DNA of 63,016 nucleotides, filler included, from GCF_002087085.1; 3 parts of 3 records of this genome joined end to end with filler, not necessarily neighbours in it, one strand, 5' to 3'. Positions 1,451-63,016 are shown, numbered from the whole stretch's first letter. Numbers and translations are program-made. Notes: generated by a model from the sequence alone, not told the origin.

Positions 1451-3751
1451 ATGCCAGAAAGCTACCCGGAGGTTATCGCACTGGAACAGCGTATCGAACC
1501 GCGACAGGTCGAAGCGGTACTCAAGCTGTTCGAAGAAGGTGCGACAGTGCCCTTTATCGCCCGCTATCGTAAAGAAGCGACCGGCGGACTCGATGAGGTG
1601 CAGATTATCGCAATTCGCGACAGAATAGAAAAGCTCAAGGAGCTGCACAAGCGTCGTGAAGCGATTCTGAATACCATGCGGGAGCACGATCAGCTTACTC
1701 CTGAACTGGAAAAAGAGATTAATGCCGCTGACACTATGGCCCATCTGGAGGATCTCTATCTGCCCTTCAGGCCCAAGCGTCGTACCCGGGCCATCATTGC
1801 CAAGGAGAAGGGACTCGAGGATCTTGCCCACAAGATTTATGACGAGGACCATATCGATTTGCTGGCTGAAGCCGAAAAGGCGGTTGATCCGGAGAAAGGG
1901 GTCGATTCTGTAGAGTTCGCTCTTCAGGGTGCCCGGGACATCGTTGCAGAATGGATCAGCGAGGACCCGGATGTGCGGGCTGACCTGCGCCACCTGTTTG
2001 AGGACGAAGCCACAATCTCTTCCACCGTCGTCAAAGGCAAGGAACGGGACCGGGATGCCCACAAGTACAAGGACTATTTCAACTGGTCCGAAAAAGCTTT
2101 CTCTGCGCCGTCCCATCGGGTTCTGGCTGCCCTGCGCGGGGCCGACGAGGGATTTCTTACGGTTCACATCCACCCCGACGAAGAGGCCACCATCGACATG
2201 CTGGAGCGGGGTTTCACCAACGGCAGAGACGACGATACCGAACAGTTGAAACTTTCCATCCGGGATGCCTACAAGCGCCTGATAGCTCCTTCCCTGGAGA
2301 ATGAGTTCAGAAAAACGATAAAAAAACGGGCCGACGAGGCCGCGGTACAGGTCTTTGCCCAGAACCTCAAGGACCTCATGCTGGCAGCCCCCCTTGGACA
2401 GAAACCGGTACTGGCCATTGATCCGGGCCTTCGAACGGGCTGCAAGCTTGTATGTCTGACCGCCCAGGGAGACCTGGTTCATACCGAGACGATTTTCCCC
2501 CTTCCTCCCCGCAACCGCAAGCAGGACGCCGCGGAAACGGTACGGAAGCTGATCGATAAATATAAAATCGAAGCCATTGCCATCGGAAACGGTACCGGCG
2601 GCAGGGAAGCCTTCGCCTTTGTCCGGACCCTGGGACTCAAGATTCCCCTGGTAATGGTCAACGAGTCGGGAGCATCGGTCTATTCCGCCTCAAAAGCGGC
2701 CAGGGAAGAGTTCCCGGACTACGATGTTACAGTCCGGGGTGCTATATCCATCGGACGGCGGCTGATGGATCCTCTGGCGGAACTCGTCAAAATCGATCCC
2801 AAGGCCATCGGCGTGGGGCAGTACCAGCACGATGTGGACCAGAAGCTCCTGAAGCGCAGCCTTGACGATGTTGTGGTATCCGCGGTCAACTCCGTGGGGG
2901 TGGAGGTAAATACAGCCTCTCCCCATCTGCTGCAGTATGTCAGCGGTCTGGGCGGAAAGATCGCCCGTTCCATCGCCAAGTATCGGGAAACTCACGGTGC
3001 CTTTAAAACCAGGGAAGATCTCAAGTCCATAGAGGGAATGGGAGACAAAACCTACGAACTTGCCGCCGGATTTCTGCGTATCCAGGAGGGTGAGAATCCG
3101 CTGGACAGAAGCGCGGTTCATCCCGAGCGGTATCCCATTGTGGAAAAAATGGCCAGTGATATCGGCGTTGATATAAAGGCTCTGATGGATGACGCCTCCC
3201 TGCGGGACCAGATCGATCTTGCCAGTTATGTCGAAGGGGATGTGGGGCTTCCCACCCTGAAAGATATTATGACCGAGCTTGCGAAACCCGGCCGGGACCC
3301 CCGGGACGAGTTTGAGGCTGTCGCCTTTGCAGAAGGGGTCACCGAGATTTCCCAGCTGGAACCCGGTATGGAACTCCCCGGTATCGTGACCAACGTAACA
3401 AACTTCGGTGCTTTTGTAGACATCGGCGTGCACCAGGACGGACTGGTACATATCTCGGAACTCTCCGACGATTTCATCCAGAATCCCGCGGACGTTGTAA
3501 AGGTTCATCAGCAGGTCAAGGTCAAGGTTCTTGAGGTCGATGTCGATCGCAAGCGGATCGCCCTTACCATGAAGAGCGGTGCCCCGTCTCAACGGAGCAA
3601 CGACCGGCGACCTCCCAGGAATGACAACCGCGGCGGCGGACCCCGGGGCGGCGGTAATCGAGGTGGCGGTAACCGCGGCGGCGGACGGGGCGGCAGGAGC
3701 GATAACAGCTCCGGCGACTCATACAATCCCTTTGCCGATCTTTTGTCCTGA
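1451..3751 (+). CDS. tex: Tex family RNA-binding transcription accessory protein with C-terminal S1 domain and RGG-rich tail
   Basis: EGATVPFIARYRKEATGGLDE, AIDPGLRTGCK, IGVGQYQHDV, S1 motif NVTNFGAFVDIGVHQDGLVHIS; AGGAG RBS before ATG 1451. Confidence 0.95.
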   Translation: MPESYPEVIALEQRIEPRQVEAVLKLFEEGATVPFIARYRKEATGGLDEVQIIAIRDRIEKLKELHKRREAILNTMREHDQLTPELEKEINAADTMAHLEDLYLPFRPKRRTRAIIAKEKGLEDLAHKIYDEDHIDLLAEAEKAVDPEKGVDSVEFALQGARDIVAEWISEDPDVRADLRHLFEDEATISSTVVKGKERDRDAHKYKDYFNWSEKAFSAPSHRVLAALRGADEGFLTVHIHPDEEATIDMLERGFTNGRDDDTEQLKLSIRDAYKRLIAPSLENEFRKTIKKRADEAAVQVFAQNLKDLMLAAPLGQKPVLAIDPGLRTGCKLVCLTAQGDLVHTETIFPLPPRNRKQDAAETVRKLIDKYKIEAIAIGNGTGGREAFAFVRTLGLKIPLVMVNESGASVYSASKAAREEFPDYDVTVRGAISIGRRLMDPLAELVKIDPKAIGVGQYQHDVDQKLLKRSLDDVVVSAVNSVGVEVNTASPHLLQYVSGLGGKIARSIAKYRETHGAFKTREDLKSIEGMGDKTYELAAGFLRIQEGENPLDRSAVHPERYPIVEKMASDIGVDIKALMDDASLRDQIDLASYVEGDVGLPTLKDIMTELAKPGRDPRDEFEAVAFAEGVTEISQLEPGMELPGIVTNVTNFGAFVDIGVHQDGLVHISELSDDFIQNPADVVKVHQQVKVKVLEVDVDRKRIALTMKSGAPSQRSNDRRPPRNDNRGGGPRGGGNRGGGNRGGGRGGRSDNSSGDSYNPFADLLS

Positions 3752-8542: not shown

Positions 8543-9582
8543 GCCGGTCTCCCCGTCCTGCGGCGCAGCAGATAGAGAAAATAGGGGGCCCCGAAGAGGG
8601 CGGTAATAATTCCCACGGGAATCTCCGTCGGTTCAAGAAGGGTCCGTGCCAGGGTATCGCTCACCACGCAGAAAAGGGCTCCGCTGAACATCGCCCAGGG
8701 AAGGAGGAGTCTGTGGCGGGGACCTGTGACAATGCGTACGGCGTGGGGAACAATAAGCCCGACAAAGCCGATGATACCGCTTACCATAACCGCTGCGGCA
8801 CTGATCAGGGTAGCAGTAACAAGAAGAAAAAGGCGTGTTCTTTGAACATGCATTCCCAGGGTGCCTGCGGTATCCTCACCCATGCTCAGAAGATCCAGAT
8901 CCCGGTTGAAAAGGGAGATCAGGATCGAAGCGGACAGAATAATGGGTCCCGCCAGGAGTATCTGCTCCCAGCCTGCGGCGGAGAAGCTGCCGAAGGTCCA
9001 GATTACGATTGATTCCACCTGCTCCCGGTTCAGGTACATCATCAGGGAGATGCCGGCGGAAAGGAGAAAGCTGACGGCGATGCCCGCCAGAAGCAGGCTG
9101 ATCAGGGACGCATCCCTGAGCCCGCCGGCTACGCCCAGTACCAGCAGGGTTGCGGCCAGGGCACCGAGGAAGGCCGAGGCAGGAACCAGACCGGGCCCTA
9201 TAAGGGGCAGGGCGGACAGGCCGGAAACCATGGCCATGGTTACCCCGAAAGCGGCTCCCGAGGAGACCCCCAGCACATAGGGATCTGCCATGGGATTGCG
9301 GAAAACCCCCTGAAATACCACTCCCCCCGCGGCCAGACCGGTACCGACCAGCAGGGCGAGGATAATCCGGGGAAGACGTATCTGGAGTACAATAAGCTCC
9401 ATGGTTTCGGGGTAGCTCCAGTTTAAAAAGGGAAAGAGCCGGTTGAGGATAATCCCGCTGGAATCCCTGAAACTCACGCTGGCGGAACCGAAGGAGGCGG
9501 AGAGAAGAATGACCATCGCCATTATAATGGGGAGGGTAAAACTGAGGGGACCCGCCAAGGGTTTCCGTGAAGGAGTTTTCAT
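8539..9582 (-). CDS. FecCD/BtuC-family ABC permease
   Basis: IRLPRI, FRNPMADPYVLGVSSGA, GIIGFVGLIVPH, EIPVGIITALFGAP; ATG overlaps upstream stop. Confidence 0.92.
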   Translation of the reverse strand: MKTPSRKPLAGPLSFTLPIIMAMVILLSASFGSASVSFRDSSGIILNRLFPFLNWSYPETMELIVLQIRLPRIILALLVGTGLAAGGVVFQGVFRNPMADPYVLGVSSGAAFGVTMAMVSGLSALPLIGPGLVPASAFLGALAATLLVLGVAGGLRDASLISLLLAGIAVSFLLSAGISLMMYLNREQVESIVIWTFGSFSAAGWEQILLAGPIILSASILISLFNRDLDLLSMGEDTAGTLGMHVQRTRLFLLVTATLISAAAVMVSGIIGFVGLIVPHAVRIVTGPRHRLLLPWAMFSGALFCVVSDTLARTLLEPTEIPVGIITALFGAPYFLYLLRRRTGRPA

Positions 9583-29924: not shown

Positions 29925-30024
29925 NNNNNNNNNNNNNNNNNNNNNNNNNNNNNNNNNNNNNNNNNNNNTTAATTAATTAANNNNNNNNNNNNNNNNNNNN
30001 NNNNNNNNNNNNNNNNNNNNNNNN
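29925..30024. other. Artificial contig linker / assembly gap
   Basis: N44-TTAATTAATTAA-N44 (stops in all six frames). Confidence 0.99.
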
Positions 30025-56561: not shown

Positions 56562-57230
56562 TCAAAAAAGACCATACAGGAGCTCTTCGTCGCATTTAAT
56601 GCGTCCGCAGCATTGCCCATAGGGTAGTCCGCTGTGGCAGGGACAGGGATCGTCGGGGGAAACCCTGGATCTGGAAAAGAAATCCACTTGAATAATCTCG
56701 TGCTTTTCCGCAGGAAGTGAAAAATAGGGAAAAATTATCTCAACATCAGAAAAAAGAGCCAGCTTTTCGCTGTTGCTTTTCCCCCGGAGTACCCCGGAGC
56801 GAAGAATACCCTGCCAGTATTCGAAAATAAGATCCCAGATCATGTCTTTTTCGCCCTGGCTGCCTATTTTACGGCTGCGCTTTGATTCCAGATACTTTTT
56901 CAGCTGAACGGAGTAGAAGGCATTCCAGTCGTCCAGCTCACTGCTCATCTGCCGGAGCATTCCGTAATCGTTCATGTAGCGATCCGCCATCCTGCCGGCA
57001 TAACTGCGCTTATGCAGACCGCGGGCGGTCAGCCAGGTTTTCAGGGCCGATGATGGAAGTCCGACCTGTTTAAGCACGATACCGATATAGAACAGCGTTC
57101 TGACCAGCTCCTGACGCTCGTCTACAGGACAGCTGCGCAGTGCTTTTCGGAAATACTCAAGGGCGATCTGCGGACGATGCCGGGCAAGAAAACGCCTGCC
57201 CGTCCGGAAGGATCTGCTGCTGGCATGCAT
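56562..57230 (-). CDS. TPR-like protein with C-terminal SEC-C motif
   Basis: DDPCPCHSGLPYGQCCG; AGGAG RBS before ATG 57230. Confidence 0.8.
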   Translation of the reverse strand: MHASSRSFRTGRRFLARHRPQIALEYFRKALRSCPVDERQELVRTLFYIGIVLKQVGLPSSALKTWLTARGLHKRSYAGRMADRYMNDYGMLRQMSSELDDWNAFYSVQLKKYLESKRSRKIGSQGEKDMIWDLIFEYWQGILRSGVLRGKSNSEKLALFSDVEIIFPYFSLPAEKHEIIQVDFFSRSRVSPDDPCPCHSGLPYGQCCGRIKCDEELLYGLF

Positions 57231-57341
57231 AGTAACTCCTTGAAATAAAATACTTAAGCCCGGGCTCTTTGACAACCGCCCTTGACCCCAGGGCGAACGC
57301 ACATAAACTCATCCAGGCAGGCGGCGGTCGATAGCCTCGTC

Positions 57342-57441: not shown

Positions 57442-57579
57442 AGGATTGTAGGGTATACAGCTATCCGGTATAAGGTGGGGTTTAATTGACGGTTACCAAT
57501 TGATCGATTCGGTGGAGTGTAGTATGGCTCTTTTCATGTTTCTGAAATCTTGTTATACTTGTAATACATGGAGGTGGGA

Positions 57580-57792
57580 ATGCTTGCGGTAAGACTTGAT
57601 CCTGACATGGAAGAAAAGCTCAACAAGCTTTCAAAAGAAACGGGAAGGAGCAAAAGCTTTTACGTGAAACAGGCATTAGAAAACTATCTAGAAGATAGAG
57701 AAGATTATTTGCTTGCGCTTTCAGTCCTGGAAAAGAAAGAACCACGGAAATCGATCAAGGAAGTGAGAAAAGAGCTTGGCTTGGACGATTGA
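57580..57792 (+). CDS. RHH/CopG-type antitoxin (RelB-like)
   Basis: MLAVRL...KLSKETGRSKSFYVKQAL..YLEDREDY; GGAGG RBS; overlaps toxin gene. Confidence 0.9.
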   Translation: MLAVRLDPDMEEKLNKLSKETGRSKSFYVKQALENYLEDREDYLLALSVLEKKEPRKSIKEVRKELGLDD

Positions 57793-58042
57793 TTTTTCTG
57801 GTACAGCAGAGAGGCAATTAAAGAAATTAGATCGGCAATGGCAGCGAGCCATCTTGGATTATTTGGAAGATGAGATAGCCCCTCTCGATAATCCACGGCA
57901 ACGGGGAAAAGCTCTTGTCGGCGATAAAAAAGGCTTGTGGCGCTATAGAATTAATGATTATCGAGTTATCTGCCAAATACTGGATACAGAACTGGTAATA
58001 TTAGCTTTAGCAATCGCACATCGTAAAGATGTGTATAAGTAA
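57776..58042 (+). CDS. RelE/ParE family toxin
   Basis: AERQLKKLD, GKALVG..GLWRYRINDYRVI, HRKDVY. Confidence 0.93.
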   Translation: MAWTIDFSGTAERQLKKLDRQWQRAILDYLEDEIAPLDNPRQRGKALVGDKKGLWRYRINDYRVICQILDTELVILALAIAHRKDVYK

Positions 58043-58080
58043 TTACCGATCCTTGAAAAAGTAGAGACGGAAAACTTAGG

Positions 58081-58189
58081 AGGACGGGCCGTTTGGCCCG
58101 TCCTTCATAATACCGCTGATTCGCGCGGATTATAGAAAAGTACCCCATTAACGGGGCTGGCCCCGGGTATTAACCAACCGTTTGTAGTA
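58081..58189. repeat. Repeat A copy 1: hairpin + motif D + 3' end of GxxExxY gene
   Basis: AGGACGGGCC-gttt-GGCCCGTCCT then TCATAATACCGCTGATTCGCGCGGATT; recurs at 59266-59395; hairpin variant at 60088-60112. Confidence 0.9.
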
Positions 58190-58537
58190 GAGCGACGGAG
58201 CATTAAAGTTGAACAGATACCCGACCTGTAAGCTTGAGAGCTTAAGGTAGTTGTAAAGCTGAGATTCCATACCGGAAGTAACCTGCGAGACAGCTTTAAG
58301 CTCGATGAGGATAGCATTGTTTACCACCATATCGGCCCGGAACGTACCGACGGACTCTCCGCGATAAAAGACGGGGAAGGCCGCCTGCTGTACTACGGAA
58401 AGCCCCTGGGCCTGGAGCTCCAGCATGTACGCCCGCTGATAAACCTTTTCGAGCAAGCCTTCGCCCAACGCGGAGTGCACCTTGAACGCAGCCCCTAAAA
58501 CCTTGTTTGACAGTTCCTTGTGAATGAACCCTGACAT
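58148..58537 (-). CDS. GxxExxY protein (PD-(D/E)xK-like nuclease), copy 1
   Basis: GLLEKVY motif, RADMVV, IELK, QLYNYL, GYLFNF; AGGAGG RBS before ATG 58537. Confidence 0.93.
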   Translation of the reverse strand: MSGFIHKELSNKVLGAAFKVHSALGEGLLEKVYQRAYMLELQAQGLSVVQQAAFPVFYRGESVGTFRADMVVNNAILIELKAVSQVTSGMESQLYNYLKLSSLQVGYLFNFNAPSLYYKRLVNTRGQPR

Positions 58538-58542
58538 ACAGA

Positions 58543-58622
58543 ACCTCCTGTTTTTCTTAACAAACACCTGTCAAGCGAGGAGCAGTCACAGGGCGAAGAG
58601 CGATAGCGTCCCTTGACGGCGA
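58543..58622 (-). repeat. Repeat B copy 1: 80-nt upstream leader of GxxExxY gene
   Basis: 77/80 identical to 60536-60615. Confidence 0.92.
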
Positions 58623-58678
58623 CGAGCGGGGGGTACAATGAAAAAGACAGGAGAATACCGCAGATTCGCGCAGATTTC

Positions 58679-59101
58679 ATGATTCGTACGGATTTTACAG
58701 TGAAATCTTTCGATTTGGGAACATTTTTCCTATTTCATCCACCCAAAATAATGATATCTAGTAATTTTAATGGGCAACTTAAGGACCTTGAACTTGAAAT
58801 AGAATCCGATATTCCGATAGCTTCCAAGTATAGGATTAATATTTATCGTTCAGATAATGAGAAAGGAAAAATGAATTCTGTTAAAAGAGTAGTGTCTATC
58901 TGTTTGCATGGAGACAAAAGAAAAATTTACTTGGGTAATCTCAACAAACTAAACATAGGACAAAATAATATGGATTTAGTAACGATTGATTTATATGAGC
59001 CAATAATACCAAATTATTATATGATCAAAACTTTGGCACTTAGCGACAATGATACCATTCTTGCATCATCTTCCGTAGAATTTATTGAGATCACCGAATG
59101 A
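58679..59101 (+). CDS. AT-rich hypothetical protein (possibly a truncated orphan immunity-type gene)
   Basis: Open frame of low GC ending at the first bases of repeat C; start uncertain; no recognisable motif. Confidence 0.5.
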   Translation: MIRTDFTVKSFDLGTFFLFHPPKIMISSNFNGQLKDLELEIESDIPIASKYRINIYRSDNEKGKMNSVKRVVSICLHGDKRKIYLGNLNKLNIGQNNMDLVTIDLYEPIIPNYYMIKTLALSDNDTILASSSVEFIEITE

Positions 59102-59257
59102 GAAAGTTGAGCCGCGCCGTTTTAAAAAAACCGGCGTCAGTTCCAACGATTTGTTCGGGGCTCGTAGAGAAGTTTTGATGAGTATAAACAAGAACCGGCA
59201 TGAAGGAAAAAAAGTAACTGAAAAAGTGTGATCATTGAAAAATCAGAGAAGGAAGAA
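59092..59257 (-). repeat. Repeat C copy 1: attC-like site (59093-59159) plus 98-nt purine-rich flank
   Basis: Minus strand CCCGAAC-aaatc-GTTGGAAC-TGACGCCG...CGGCGCG-GCTCAAC-tttctc-ATTCGGT; recurs at 62824-62992. Confidence 0.85.
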
Positions 59258-59265
59258 ATTTCATG

Positions 59266-59395
59266 AGGACGGGCCGTTCGGCCCGTCCTTCATAATACCG
59301 CTGATTCGCGCAGTTTTCAGGCAGATTCGCGCGGATTATAGAAGAGTACCCCATTAACGGGGCCCGCCCCGGGTATTAACCAGCCGCTTGTAATA
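59266..59395 (-). pseudogene. Repeat A copy 2 with 14-codon GxxExxY 3' remnant (59354-59395)
   Basis: Hairpin AGGACGGGCC-gttc-GGCCCGTCCT; remnant reads YYKRLVNTRGGPR* versus YYKRLVNTRGQPR* in copy 1. Confidence 0.85.
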
Positions 59396-59411
59396 AAACA
59401 AGATAAATTAA

Positions 59412-59708
59412 TTACGACGCTTTCTGAATACTTAGCTTTAAACCAAGCGCAAGAAGAACAGCATTTAAGGTACGGATAGTGGGATTGCCTGTTTCTGATA
59501 AAGAACGATAAAGGTGCTGACGATTTAATTCAGTTTTTTCAGCGAGAATAGTCATGCCGCCTTGAGCATCGACAACTGTACGTATGGCCTTAAGAAAAGC
59601 AGACAGATTGCCATCGTGTTCATATTCTTCTAATGCTGCTTCCAGGTAGAGCGAAGATTCGTTTGAGTCTTTTACAACATCTTTGACAAAGTTCCTATAT
59701 TCTCGCAT
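59412..59708 (-). CDS. Addiction module antidote protein (HigA-like HTH antitoxin)
   Basis: YLEAALEE, GGMTILAEKTELNRQHLYRSLSETGNPT; RBS before ATG 59708. Confidence 0.9.
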   Translation of the reverse strand: MREYRNFVKDVVKDSNESSLYLEAALEEYEHDGNLSAFLKAIRTVVDAQGGMTILAEKTELNRQHLYRSLSETGNPTIRTLNAVLLALGLKLSIQKAS

Positions 59709-59709
59709 C

Positions 59710-60042
59710 CTAATTCTCCCTTCTGTAAATATCCCAATACTGGCGTGCCTTCTTGATGTCCCTGTTCTGTGTACTTTTTGACCCGCCTGCAAGCAGCAGG
59801 ATAAGGCTTTTCTCTTCCATCCCAAAATAAACACGGTATCCAGGTCCGAAGGTAAACCGCAATTCAAAGAGATTATCGCCAAGCGATTTATAATTGCCCA
59901 GATTTCCTTGTTCAACTCGATCCAAACGAGTGAAGATACGTGCACGATCGGTTCCAGCAATACTGGAAACCCACTCAGCAAAAGGTTCCTTGCTATTTGT
60001 AGGATCCTGAAAGATAACAATTCTTATAGGCTGAGCAATCAT
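59710..60042 (-). CDS. Addiction module killer protein (HigB/RelE-like toxin)
   Basis: PFAEW, GNLGNYKSLGDNLFELRFTFGPGYRVYF, LLAGGSKSTQ.RDI. Confidence 0.92.
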   Translation of the reverse strand: MIAQPIRIVIFQDPTNSKEPFAEWVSSIAGTDRARIFTRLDRVEQGNLGNYKSLGDNLFELRFTFGPGYRVYFGMEEKSLILLLAGGSKSTQNRDIKKARQYWDIYRREN

Positions 60043-60047
60043 AGGAT

Positions 60048-60076
60048 AGTGTCGCACAAAAGCGACACTGCGTCAA
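60048..60076 (-). promoter_or_regulatory. TA promoter with palindromic operator
   Basis: AGTGTCGC-acaaaa-GCGACACT (60048-60069) just downstream of a minus-strand TTGACG. Confidence 0.7.
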
Positions 60077-60087
60077 GTAGAATACAA

Positions 60088-60112
60088 GAAGGACGGGCAA
60101 AGTCCGTCCTTC
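60088..60112. repeat. Repeat A hairpin variant
   Basis: GAAGGACGGGC-aaa-GTCCGTCCTTC, downstream of the second GxxExxY gene. Confidence 0.8.
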
Positions 60113-60146
60113 ATCATTTAAGTAACCGACTAAAAAGGGGGACGGC

Positions 60147-60530
60147 TCACCCGTCCCCGGTTTGCACAAATCTGCGCCACTCGACTTTGCTGTTGCGGAA
60201 GTTGATAAGATAGCCAACTGGAACCTTGGACAGACGGAGGTAATATATAAGCTGTGCCTCCATGGCGGATGTGAGCTGCCGTACTGATTTGAGTTCCAGT
60301 ATGATGCTGTTTGCAACAACAAGATCAGCGATGTAGGCACCTGCCAGTTCGCCCTTGTAGTAGAGGGGATAGATTTTTTCTGTACAGAAGGGAATACCCC
60401 GTTTTTTAAGTTCGATGACCAGGGCCCCATGATAGGCAGATTCCAGAAGCCCGGGACCACAAATGTTATGAACCGAAAAGACTGCTCCCAGCACCTGATG
60501 AGACAATTCCTTGAAAGCTATGTGTGCCAT
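60147..60530 (-). CDS. GxxExxY protein, copy 2
   Basis: GLLESAY motif, IADLVV, LELK, QLIYYL, GYLINF; GGGGACGG/CCGTCCCC terminator-like hairpin spans the stop. Confidence 0.93.
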   Translation of the reverse strand: MAHIAFKELSHQVLGAVFSVHNICGPGLLESAYHGALVIELKKRGIPFCTEKIYPLYYKGELAGAYIADLVVANSIILELKSVRQLTSAMEAQLIYYLRLSKVPVGYLINFRNSKVEWRRFVQTGDG

Positions 60531-60535
60531 ACTGC

Positions 60536-60615
60536 ACCTCCTGTTTTTCTTAACAAACACCAGCCAAGCGAGGAGCAGTCACAGGGCGAAGAGCGACAGC
60601 GTCCCTTGACGGCGA
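60536..60615 (-). repeat. Repeat B copy 2
   Basis: 77/80 identical to 58543-58622. Confidence 0.92.
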
Positions 60616-61007
60616 TGATGCCCCAGCGATTCGCCACAGGCGATATCGCAAGCCCAAGGTTTACGCAGTAAACCGCAGGGGGGAGGTATACTGGAAAGAA
60701 CAGGAGGAGGCGAAGAGGAAAACTAAACCGCTGATGAACGCTGATGATACTGGGTACAACGGAGAAGCGGTTCACTGATGTATATGGGGTCGGGCATAAC
60801 AGAGATATAGAAAAGAGGATTTCCCATCTGTTCTCTTTCTGTTACACTGTTTCAAATATGAAAAGTCTGGTTCCAGCACATACGCGACAGCAATCAGCGT
60901 ACCGCCTGCCTGCGCATACATGCACCATCAGCGGGGCCCCCCTGCCTTGCCCCATACCGATCAGTGGTTCAATAACTTCTCTAATCTGTGACAGAAATGA
61001 TCGTGAA

Positions 61008-62372
61008 AGCTACGATGCCAACGGGAATGTAACCCGTGAATCAACCCTGCCTGAAGGCCAGTCCTCCGCCCATGAAGCCCCGAACCTGAGCACCATCGGG
61101 GAGGTCCGCCGGGCCGACCAGGCCTTCGGCTTTATCAACGAAGTGGAAAGCGGAAACGAGAACGAGTACATCCGCAGCTTCAGCTGGGATGCGGAGAACC
61201 GCTTAAAGAGCGTCCTGACCTCCAACGGAAAGAGCGTGAAGTACCTCTACGACGCCGACGGCAAACGTACCACCAAGTACGCAGGGGACGGCTCCTACAC
61301 CGAAGGCATAAGCGGCGAGACCCTCTACTTAAACGAATGGTGGACCGAAACCGCCGACTCCGGCAGCTTCCGGCGGGCCAAGCACATCTACGTGGGAAAG
61401 GAGCGCATCGTAACGCGCTTAAGCAACCCTTCTACCGGAGGGACTCCCTATGAGGACGTCAACACCTATTATTACCACCCCGACCACCTGGGAAGCGCCC
61501 ACTGCATTACCGACCCGCAAGGAAACCCCTACGAGAGGATAGAGTATACCCCCTACGGTGAGATGTGGATCGAGATACAGGAAGATGAGGCTACAGCAAG
61601 TTATAACTACATACCTTTTAGGTTTACCGCAAAGGAATATGACGAGGAGACCGGGCTGTATTATTACGGGGCCAGGTATATGGATCCGAAGACGTCGAGG
61701 TGGATGAGTGGGGACCCTGCGGGGTACCAGTTGATGAATCCGATGGGACAAGACGGGAAGCCGAGACAGGGATACAGCATAGTTGAGGCGACGAACTGGT
61801 ATAGCTATGTGAGTAATAATCCGGTGAAGTATGTTGATCCGACGGGGATGGAGGGCGTAAGGGAAGAATTAGAAGATCCGTTTATGACGGATCGTATATT
61901 CGAAGAACAGTTTGAGGAATATAGGCAGGATGTTTATTCGCAAGTAAGAAAGAGAACTCCTGAAGAAGATGACCAGTTTTATAATGATGTGCAGCCAGCT
62001 CTTATTCTATATTCTGAAGGACAAATGGATGAATTACTTTCAGAACTTATTGGATTAGAACAAGATGTTGCGAATAAGCGGCTCGAGGTAATGGATTTAG
62101 TAAATGAATACTACCATAGCAATAAAAGAGTTAATGGCTTAGTTGAAGAAGGTATTATTACACCACTTATACCTGGCCCCACTGATAAAGCTGGCTATGA
62201 GGTTATAAATTTCATAATCCCTGAATATATTGATGAATTGACAAATGTATATTCACTTCCACGGAGGATTGATATTGCTATTAATGAATACAATTCTCTT
62301 TTCCAGACACGAGATTTTGTAAAAAAGGAACATATATCTCAATGTAAATTGAGGCAACAAATAAGGCAATAA
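61008..62372 (+). CDS. Orphan (5'-truncated) Rhs core + C-terminal toxin domain
   Basis: YD repeats (YDANGN, WDAENRL, YDADGKR), YYHPDHLGS, YYYGARYMDP, NNPVKYVDPTG; GC drops at CT start 61848; no convincing start or RBS. Confidence 0.88.
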   Translation, partial: SYDANGNVTRESTLPEGQSSAHEAPNLSTIGEVRRADQAFGFINEVESGNENEYIRSFSWDAENRLKSVLTSNGKSVKYLYDADGKRTTKYAGDGSYTEGISGETLYLNEWWTETADSGSFRRAKHIYVGKERIVTRLSNPSTGGTPYEDVNTYYYHPDHLGSAHCITDPQGNPYERIEYTPYGEMWIEIQEDEATASYNYIPFRFTAKEYDEETGLYYYGARYMDPKTSRWMSGDPAGYQLMNPMGQDGKPRQGYSIVEATNWYSYVSNNPVKYVDPTGMEGVREELEDPFMTDRIFEEQFEEYRQDVYSQVRKRTPEEDDQFYNDVQPALILYSEGQMDELLSELIGLEQDVANKRLEVMDLVNEYYHSNKRVNGLVEEGIITPLIPGPTDKAGYEVINFIIPEYIDELTNVYSLPRRIDIAINEYNSLFQTRDFVKKEHISQCKLRQQIRQ

Positions 62373-62373
62373 A

Positions 62374-62757
62374 ATGAAAAAAAATCTGATAATAGTATTA
62401 TTTCTACTAATAGCTTTCACATCGTGTTTAGATGCGTATACAGGAAATACTTCTGTTTTATGTCTTACAAATGATTATGAATACATAAGACTTGAAATTG
62501 ATTTTTCAATGGATGTTTCAAAAGCGCAAACTGATAATATTGAAAGTGATACCCTTGAAATGTTCATTGTTGATTATGTTAGTTCGAGTATTGAGATTTA
62601 TTTATTAGATATTATCTCAAATATTGAGTTTTCAGAGGTAGAATTGATGATAGATAATCAGCGCTTGAATGAAATGTTGCTAGACCACTTGAATTCTTTA
62701 CCTAGATTGAACGGAGATCCTGTAAGGTCTGTTTCCATAACGATTAGTAGTATGTAG
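62374..62757 (+). CDS. Putative immunity lipoprotein
   Basis: Starts 1 nt after the Rhs stop; AT-rich; lipoprotein signal MKKNLIIVLFLLIAFTSC. Confidence 0.75.
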   Translation: MKKNLIIVLFLLIAFTSCLDAYTGNTSVLCLTNDYEYIRLEIDFSMDVSKAQTDNIESDTLEMFIVDYVSSSIEIYLLDIISNIEFSEVELMIDNQRLNEMLLDHLNSLPRLNGDPVRSVSITISSM

Positions 62758-62823
62758 ATTGTCTGGTAAAGTCCGAGCAACAGAACGTAAGTTTATAGGA
62801 TGTACAGCAGTGGTGTTTGATCA

Positions 62824-62992
62824 CACCGAATGAGAAAGTTGAGCTGCGCTGTCTATTGAAAAAGGACAGCGTCAGTTCCAACGATTTGTTCGGGGCTCGT
62901 AGAGAAGCTTTGATGAGTATAAACAAGAACCGGCATGAAGGAAAAAAAGTAACTGAAAAAGTGTGATCATTGAAAAGTCAGAGAAGGAAGAA
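62824..62992 (-). repeat. Repeat C copy 2: attC-like site (62825-62894) plus 98-nt flank
   Basis: Same R''/L''/L'/R' boxes as copy 1, different apical loop; flank 96/98 identical. Confidence 0.85.
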
Positions 62993-63016
62993 GATTCGGG
63001 AGAAAGAAACGTCGAG

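Follow-up and report, generated by a model that had tools for sequence, protein, structure and literature searches.

The question raised by contig C36 of the genome assembly GCF_002087085.1 is whether a set of near-identical non-coding joints, repeated around Rhs toxin, nuclease and toxin–antitoxin (TA) genes, marks the exchange points of a dedicated cassette system or has a different origin. C36 (5,575 bp) occupies positions 57442–63016 of the window, by which we mean the whole stretch of 63,016 nucleotides (nt) that was analyzed (window coordinate = C36 + 57441). A first reading, made without database searches (the sequence-only reading), had described an order of TA pair, GxxExxY gene, cargo and attC-like repeat occurring twice, and had proposed an undescribed system for shuffling toxin modules. 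The observation is confirmed here and the interpretation partly supported. The explanation towards which we lean is that the locus is an Rhs orphan array whose modules are exchanged by homologous recombination, and which has been colonized by GxxExxY mini-elements and by TA pairs.

Searches with hidden Markov models (HMMs) and repeat comparison recovered the repeated module parts. The genes are as follows (ORF, open reading frame; aa, amino acids; GC, fraction of G+C).

57568–57792, plus strand: RelB antitoxin (HMM NF048017, 84.6 bits)
57776–58042, plus strand: RelE/ParE toxin (HMM PF05016, 58.5 bits; also TIGR02385)
58148–58537, minus strand: GxxExxY-1, 129 aa (TIGR04256, 133 bits, cut-off 35; PF13366)
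58697–59101, plus strand: cargo 1, the 3' part of a 5'-truncated AT-rich gene (GC 0.31)
59354–59395, minus strand: 3' remnant (13 codons) of a third GxxExxY gene, GxxExxY-1-type, from repeat comparison
59412–59708, minus strand: HigA-like antitoxin (HMM TIGR02684, 55.6 bits)
59710–60057, minus strand: HigB-like toxin (HMM TIGR02683, 103.5 bits)
60147–60530, minus strand: GxxExxY-2, 127 aa (TIGR04256, 131 bits, cut-off 35)
60744–62372, plus strand: orphan Rhs ORF, open from 60744 (TIGR03696, 69.7 bits, cut-off 32.5; PF05593/RHS_repeat)
61008–61850, plus strand: Rhs core fragment of the orphan (GC 0.56)
61851–62372, plus strand: variable toxin tip of the orphan (GC 0.35)
62374–62757, plus strand: presumed immunity gene (127 aa, lipoprotein-like N-terminus, GC 0.30)

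The non-coding joints are near-identical and the coding contents differ, as had been seen. Repeat A matches at 89% (58070–58131 vs. 59255–59316) and 91% (58115–58189 vs. 59321–59395, which includes the 13-codon GxxExxY remnant that had been placed in the second unit), repeat B at 93% over 94 nt (58532–58625 vs. 60525–60618) and repeat C at 93% over 147 nt (59121–59267 vs. 62856–63002), plus a further stretch of C at 86% (59085–59120 vs. 62817–62852). The two nucleases are 47–48% identical, and one TA pair is RelBE, the other HigBA. Repeats of such length within 5.6 kb are far beyond chance.

By its RHS repeats, core domain, full-length head gene and variable tips, the region reads as an Rhs/YD-repeat polymorphic toxin locus. 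The full-length Rhs gene anticipated at the head of the array was found: contig overlaps lead from an ORF of 1,919 aa on C33, open at its 3' end and carrying SpvB, FG-GAP and TcdB_midN, through C63 to C39 (1,277 aa plus tip), and in the congener G003 the main Rhs gene is contiguous and encodes 3,388 aa. Sized from these pieces and the G003 gene, the main Rhs protein would be about 3,300 aa long; its domains are SpvB, FG-GAP, TcdB-mid and RHS-repeat. Homology of the orphan to Rhs begins exactly at 61008, and in contigs from three other runs Rhs continues upstream of this position. On C36, C39, C40, C43 and C48 the Rhs cores are mutually 90–96% identical and share one end, after which each contig has a tip of its own, five in all. 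The ORF at 62374–62757 matched no family in Pfam, NCBIfam, PADLOC or PHROGs, and its place directly after the tip suggests an immunity role. Cargo 1, equally without a family in these four databases, is indeed AT-rich and on the plus strand, as first described, but it is a 5'-truncated remnant that starts at 58697 and not a complete ORF; the missing 5' part is on C73, next to a copy of IS66, and the tail occurs also on C40. Since it is followed by repeat C, cargo 1 is probably the remnant of an immunity-type gene.

Repeat C begins just after unrelated cargo in both copies.

59085–59267, plus strand: repeat C, copy 1, a variable hairpin and then ~150 nt of conserved tail
62817–63016, plus strand: repeat C, copy 2, crossing the contig end into C64 (BrnT/BrnA pair)

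Pairing of its hairpin is kept through compensating changes, and its conserved ~150 nt retain 81–93% primary-sequence identity across copies; C occurs behind modules of both the C36-type and the C18-type Rhs family, and in two species. A terminator scan did not call the first hairpin of C as a terminator. We interpret C as a conserved tail of Rhs toxin-tip/immunity modules, so that an orphan module would comprise a 5'-truncated Rhs core, a variable tip, an immunity gene and C. C also holds a 16–17-codon ORF (59159–59231 and 62894–62966) that is open in two Rhs families, with some synonymous-looking changes.

A natural variant illustrates how such modules may be exchanged. In a contig from run X2, 61851–62823 is replaced by 1,303 other letters, and the flanks match up to 61850 and again from 62824. 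The swap of tip and immunity gene exactly between the end of the core and C is as expected of homologous recombination, and orphans would thus swap tips by ordinary recombination, with the ~840-nt core serving as the left and C as the right region of homology. In the same contig C is followed, after 639 letters, by a GxxExxY-1 gene, again giving the order C, BrnTA-like, GxxExxY-1. The X-run variants are metagenome contigs aligned at 88% likeness, for which only joints with long sides were relied on; 59302–60045 and 61906–62649 are uncovered in X1 and X2 and were used only where a contig joins across them.

Arrays of orphan toxin tips with immunity genes, placed after a full-length gene, are known from Salmonella, E. 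coli and Dickeya, for both Rhs and contact-dependent inhibition (CDI) systems, a literature to which PMC7043789 belongs. Like the known Rhs arrays, the present one has a full-length Rhs gene paired with an immunity gene; 5'-truncated copies downstream, which retain part of the core and each have a different tip and immunity gene; low-GC tips; and exchange at the core end. Unlike them, it has a divergent GxxExxY unit in front of the orphans, the end of which forms the joint, a conserved tail of ~180 nt as the 3' limit of the exchanged part, interleaved TA pairs and spirochaete hosts.

The likeness of C to an attC site, part of the original proposal, finds no clear support, given the conservation of its primary sequence at 81–93% and the lack of a tyrosine recombinase on the island contigs (tblastn with the tyrosine recombinases of the G002 island hits only C6, C4 and C34 in this incomplete draft). 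The array does share with integron cassettes and superintegrons promoterless-looking modules that each end in a hairpin repeat, and TA pairs inside the array; in G002, moreover, a group II intron lies inside repeat C, and some group II introns target attC. Integron attC sites, however, have a conserved structure with little conservation of sequence, whereas C is conserved in sequence over ~150 nt and not in structure only; the exchange here spans the Rhs core end to C, as homologous recombination would, and the island contigs carry no integrase. At 9215 / 13049 of locus L032 of G002, reverse-transcriptase genes of group II introns form a block that interrupts C, and at L031 an intron of the same type lies between a GxxExxY leader and its Rhs fragment.

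The other two repeats have a different nature. Their features, and those of the leader upstream of each nuclease gene, are listed below (RBS, ribosome-binding site).

58081–58134, minus strand: joint A1, terminator hairpin (58081–58104) and 26-nt periodic repeat (58109–58134)
59266–59395, minus strand: joint A2, hairpin (59266–59289) and two periodic-repeat copies (59294–59340)
60088–60158, minus strand: joint A3, two terminator-like hairpins after GxxExxY-2
58538–58696: leader B1, with RBS, hairpin arms 58585–58593 and 58610–58617 and periodic repeats 58654–58689; its end is the joint 58696/58697
58613–58639, plus strand: outward promoter-like site of leader B1, from sequence pattern
60531–60996: leader B2, with RBS, hairpin arms 60578–60586 and 60603–60610, proximal repeats at ~60726–60750 and inverted distal repeats at ~60893–60975
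60616–60680: 65-nt insert in leader B2, with a small palindrome of its own, beside the leader hairpin
60986–60996: outer end of the B2 unit, a loose end in a contig of run X5

Hairpin A scores in the terminator scan as the minus-strand intrinsic terminator of the GxxExxY genes, and the 26-nt periodic repeat of A1 reappears in direct orientation at 58654–58679, within leader B1. From its far end towards the gene, a leader consists of ~10-nt periodic words (often in inverted sets), a conserved block, a hairpin, the word CTCCTCGC and the RBS. The hairpin arms read GT(C/A)AAGG and CCTTGAC, with a loop of 16 to ~80 nt; at ten named pairs 87.5% of cells are paired, against 39–49% with the partner slid, and four pairs have changed on both sides, a score that is favorable to the structure in that it was derived from the same sequences. 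In distant paralogues the stem extends by a further 8–10 pairs of unrelated sequence. Searching Rfam with the contig at E up to 1 returned two chance-level matches only. A site resembling −35 and −10 hexamers and pointing outwards, made up of the conserved block and the 5' arm, was found in 23 of 55 units, where shuffled sequences lead one to expect 0.1; the same pattern gave no inward promoter for the nuclease gene in any of the 55. What had looked like a leader peptide common to the orphan ORFs is the translated distal repeats.

The same leader plan is kept at GxxExxY copies beside core genes and other defense-type genes with no Rhs near them, from which it follows that A and B belong to the nuclease unit; we regard them as its two ends, that is, its intrinsic flanks. 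A GxxExxY mini-element would accordingly be made up of a PD-(D/E)xK gene, a terminator (A) and a leader (B) with RBS, covarying hairpin with a TTGAC core, outward promoter-like site and ~10-nt periodic inverted repeats. The idea that the joints serve as exchange points thereby stands in part: contigs of other strains do swap modules at the joints, but A and B are flanks of the GxxExxY unit and not joints of an Rhs cassette. The 65-nt insert in B2 is absent from the copy on C40 and from the contigs of X1 and X2, and possibly represents a tiny insertion element; in G003 a comparable insert lies within the hairpin loop of one leader copy. Other GxxExxY copies away from Rhs (L056, L053, L094, L101 and L107) have downstream genes of defense-like appearance, which we take by eye to encode type I restriction–modification subunits, HEPN-type and ribbon-helix-helix proteins, and GxxExxY units may favor defense islands in general.

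Relatives of the GxxExxY genes at seven loci on viral contigs allow a comparison of filled and empty sites. At the six examined, periodic words stand on either side of the gene, and the sets at the two ends match in inverted orientation. A wider set of 22 related viral loci, collected with the upstream gene as query, includes four with a unit between the upstream gene and the next (L128, L129, L137 and L141) and five with only 97–136 nt there (L130, L131, L132, L146 and L147); one more has 330 nt with repeat remnants, and 12 have no recognizable downstream gene. The four filled loci have inverted repeats of ~26–30 nt, formed by three tandem words that differ between units. No target-site duplication was recognized by eye at the viral units. 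Terminal inverted repeats (TIRs) together with presence and absence at one site were found for the viral units only; in G002, a GxxExxY-1-type unit has an inverted distal copy at the start of the Rhs fragment. On viral contig L144 a segment of 330 nt (2909–3239) at the unit site has periodic words and no nuclease gene, and is possibly a gene-less derivative of the unit.

Small TIR elements with outward promoters and free-standing homing-endonuclease genes resemble these units in being short, with inverted repeats at their ends, one nuclease-fold gene, filled and empty sites (here on viral contigs), an outward promoter-like site, and a fixed end joined to a variable neighbor. The GxxExxY protein differs in belonging to no known transposase or homing-endonuclease family, and the units, known from sequence comparison, differ from small TIR elements in their unit-specific tandem periodic words and in the lack of a recognized target duplication.

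The same contrast between a fixed and a variable side is seen at the Rhs fragments. The joint is fixed on the side of the unit and variable on that of Rhs. In the numbering of the G003 protein, Rhs is truncated at residues ~2905, 2890, 2767 and 1839, and two further assemblies have other truncation points. Insertion, or deletion starting from the end of the unit, would leave such a pattern, and either could have produced the variable Rhs-side joints, the outer end of the unit setting the fixed 5' joint of the orphans. If the outward promoter were active, it would transcribe the orphan and its immunity gene, which would explain why units are kept before orphans.

The TA pairs would form a third interleaved module, at the 3' side of the nuclease genes, where they are located. 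RelB/RelE, the HigB-like/HigA-like pair and BrnT with its partner ORF on C64 are best read as type II pairs from their make-up of adjacent small genes with matches to toxin and antitoxin families. RelBE counterparts at the same place after the main Rhs gene are 97–100% identical in G002 and 83–85% in G003, and the order GxxExxY, HigB, HigA recurs in G003 and in Salinispira. The HigBA module, including the GxxExxY remnant, is absent between the two A joints from the contigs of runs X1 and X2.

GxxExxY-2 is 96% identical to the copy on C40, 93% to that of G002 and 86–87% to those of G003. The motif E30/D69/E79/K81 is intact in GxxExxY-1, and G25, G27, E30, Y33, D69, E79 and K81 are invariant among 28 aligned sequences. 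An AlphaFold2 model of GxxExxY-1 (mean predicted local distance difference test, pLDDT, 92.4) was closest in Foldseek to Cas4 SSO0001 (TM 0.58), lambda-type exonucleases and Hjc; E-values were weak, and accordingly only the general fold is assigned, which the model indicates to be that of PD-(D/E)xK nucleases. A sequence search of the PDB found nothing for GxxExxY-1, nor did PADLOC and PHROGs for the nuclease. Another group of small PD-(D/E)xK proteins, the Rpn/YhgA nucleases, has been proposed to promote recombination; these belong to PDDEXK_2, whereas GxxExxY is PF13366. The literature that we searched held no functional study of the GxxExxY family, and Steczkiewicz 2012 lists the function of GxxExxY/PF13366 as unknown.

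We next consider how widely the arrangement recurs. BLASTN found A, B and C on C40, C48, C64, C67, C69, C72 and C18 and nowhere else in the genome, and the repeats recur in two congeners; they are thus not confined to the copies on C36, and the order A, GxxExxY, B, cargo, C is repeated with different cargo in association with Rhs, TA and GxxExxY genes. Read in reverse, C40 carries the tail of cargo 1, C, A, the GxxExxY-2 copy, B and a different Rhs tip (545-aa ORF), followed by a 209-aa lipoprotein-like ORF, a hairpin and IS66. Beyond C64 come two copies resembling GxxExxY-1 (at 92% and 97% identity), then a leader (C67) and a long Rhs fragment. These sister contigs, and G002 and G003 likewise, repeat the order TA, GxxExxY, leader, cargo, tail, and the A–nuclease–B stretch has matches in 6 of 41 genomes including that studied here (G000), 4 of its 5 congeners among them. 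G003 has in a single stretch the 3,388-aa Rhs gene, a 284-aa ORF, RelBE, a broken GxxExxY gene, a leader, HigBA, GxxExxY, a leader and ordinary genes, with no orphan behind either leader. G002 (6 contigs) has the full Rhs gene and a downstream ORF, then A, GxxExxY-1 and B, then a 1,572-aa Rhs fragment; elsewhere it has RelBE, a GxxExxY remnant and a 1,044-aa Rhs fragment, with group II introns interrupting C, and BrnTA and GxxExxY-1 after it.

Beyond the genus, Salinispira and two metagenome-assembled genomes, one of the Spirochaetia and one of the Spirochaetales, have a divergent Rhs fragment 250–400 nt upstream of a GxxExxY-2-type gene. Such a fragment is found upstream of 11 of 24 distinct GxxExxY copies (27 rows minus one duplicate and two with too little upstream DNA). 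A close relative of GxxExxY-2 is present in only 27 of 301 genomes of the class, and in a tree of 56 GxxExxY copies all eight rows labeled by Rhs motifs fall within one clade of 27 rows, the motif-based label being an undercount that misses the long-leader copy and the intron-interrupted copy of G002. The other GxxExxY genes of the genome (two on C4, two on C23, one on C75) are not near Rhs, and the association of GxxExxY with Rhs is not general.

Several observations weigh against an Rhs orphan array colonized by GxxExxY mini-elements and TA pairs. When the class was sampled at one locus per genome, only 5 of 30 rows showed Rhs motifs upstream, a label that undercounts here too. Many of the copies found together in a genome probably arose by tandem duplication, and the counts are therefore not independent events. 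On C18, which carries the second Rhs family, C and an orphan fragment occur in the absence of a GxxExxY gene. As for the unit as an element, empty sites sought among the five congeners for two other GxxExxY copies gave no clean comparison, GxxExxY-2-type units have no recognizable downstream repeat, and in a crude exact-word test the flank repeats exceeded the 95th percentile of the null in only 10 (direct) and 8 (inverted) of 55 units. The outward promoter is a prediction from pattern: the site in B1 has a 15-nt spacer, and in B2 the 65-nt insert splits the two hexamers. No Shine-Dalgarno start was found before the orphan ORF.

The setting of C36 bears on the alternatives. The window consists of three contigs (C22, C24 and C36) of a 79-contig, 4.2-Mb draft joined by artificial linkers, for which reason features read across the linkers are not real adjacency.

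29925–30024: linker N44-TTAATTAATTAA-N44 between C22 and C24
57342–57441: linker N44-TTAATTAATTAA-N44 between C24 and C36
57442–57496: start of C36, 55 nt identical to the end of C44 (2,392 bp)

The last 55 nt of C36 are the start of C64. C44 has three co-directional ORFs of 112, 115 and 514 aa, the last with matches to insertion sequence (IS) copies in relatives, and we take it by eye to be an IS66-family element; its four incoming and three outgoing overlap partners imply at least three or four copies, several of which flank pieces of the Rhs island. The overlaps give the order C33, C63, C39 (main Rhs, tip and a 230-aa ORF), C44 (IS66) and then C36, C40 or C73, and beyond C36 the order C64 (BrnTA), C69 or C72 (GxxExxY-1-like), C67 (leader), C74 and C63 (Rhs). 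On this order, read from 55-nt overlaps and supported by synteny with a congener, C36 would form the proximal part of the orphan island, separated only by an IS66 copy from the main Rhs gene and its immunity gene upstream. The draft breaks at every island repeat, and C36 has an exact internal repeat of 68 nt, longer than the contig overlaps, so that the order of its halves depends on how the assembler resolved it. On C24, and unrelated to the island, a 246-aa ORF (56562–57302, minus strand) ends in a Cys-rich CPCHSG...CCG motif, presumably of SEC-C type.

That the adjacency reflects passive accumulation, orphans, TA pairs, IS66, group II introns and GxxExxY genes merely sharing a dispensable island in which tandem duplication multiplied their adjacency, and the unit having no role for the orphans, is in our judgment rather unlikely. 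The island does hold IS66, and in G002 it contains IS21, integrase genes and group II introns; in Salinispira the copies are truncated at one and the same point and their nuclease genes are nearly identical, as tandem duplication would leave them; remnants and deletions are present, and G003 retains units with no orphan behind. Passive accumulation sits poorly, however, with the number of truncation points (at least four at Marispirochaeta-type and Salinispira loci, and more in two other assemblies), with the occurrence of two nuclease clades, ~45% identical, both at Rhs fragments, and with an outward promoter-like site that is conserved and always points at the cargo.

Distinctly unlikely, to our mind, is the dedicated cassette system of the sequence-only reading, in which GxxExxY would cut at or near the joints and start the shuffling while TA pairs penalize the loss of segments. 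Such a role could draw on the catalytic motif, intact in 28 of 28 aligned copies, on the likeness of the fold to Cas4, lambda-type exonucleases and Hjc, on the joint that is fixed at the unit and variable at four or more positions on Rhs, on the GxxExxY remnant and truncated genes at unit ends, on an adjacency kept in several genera the Rhs proteins of which are only 25–30% identical, and on the four families of TA pairs that adjoin units. Yet units also occur far from Rhs, beside core, other TA and restriction–modification-like genes, and as simple insertions in viral contigs; the exchange of tips in another strain used the Rhs core end and C and not the nuclease unit; neither a cleavage site nor a recombinase partner was found; and the Rhs array of C18 works without a unit. 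The repeated joints are the ends of GxxExxY elements and not proven cassette sites, and nothing tested shows the nuclease acting on the island or a penalty of TA pairs on loss. An artefact of misassembly, or a single duplication followed by decay, to which the 68-nt repeat exceeding the 55-nt overlaps and the breaks of the draft at island repeats might have pointed, is extremely improbable and largely refuted, each kind of joint having reappeared in the better-assembled G002 (6 contigs) as well as in G003 and contigs from other runs, and the repeats being present on six or more further contigs with other cargo.

A bolder extension of the colonized orphan array can be entertained, which we think unlikely as it stands: that GxxExxY units are undescribed small mobile elements, each a PD-(D/E)xK nuclease gene between inverted arrays of unit-specific ~10-nt words, with a leader hairpin and an outward promoter, and that in spirochaete Rhs islands cutting or insertion directed by their ends would create 5'-truncated orphans, drive expression of immunity genes and promote the shuffling of tips.

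Rhs orphan arrays are known, and the limits of their modules and the upkeep of immunity-gene expression are poorly understood. Here the 5' limit of an orphan coincides with the end of a recurrent nuclease-gene unit that has an outward promoter-like site, and the 3' limit with a conserved tail, both of which are directly testable. The predicted outward promoter offers a reason for units being kept before orphans. For GxxExxY, a very widespread family without a known role, the way the unit is built, together with viral sites that are filled in some contigs and empty in others, offers a concrete hypothesis.

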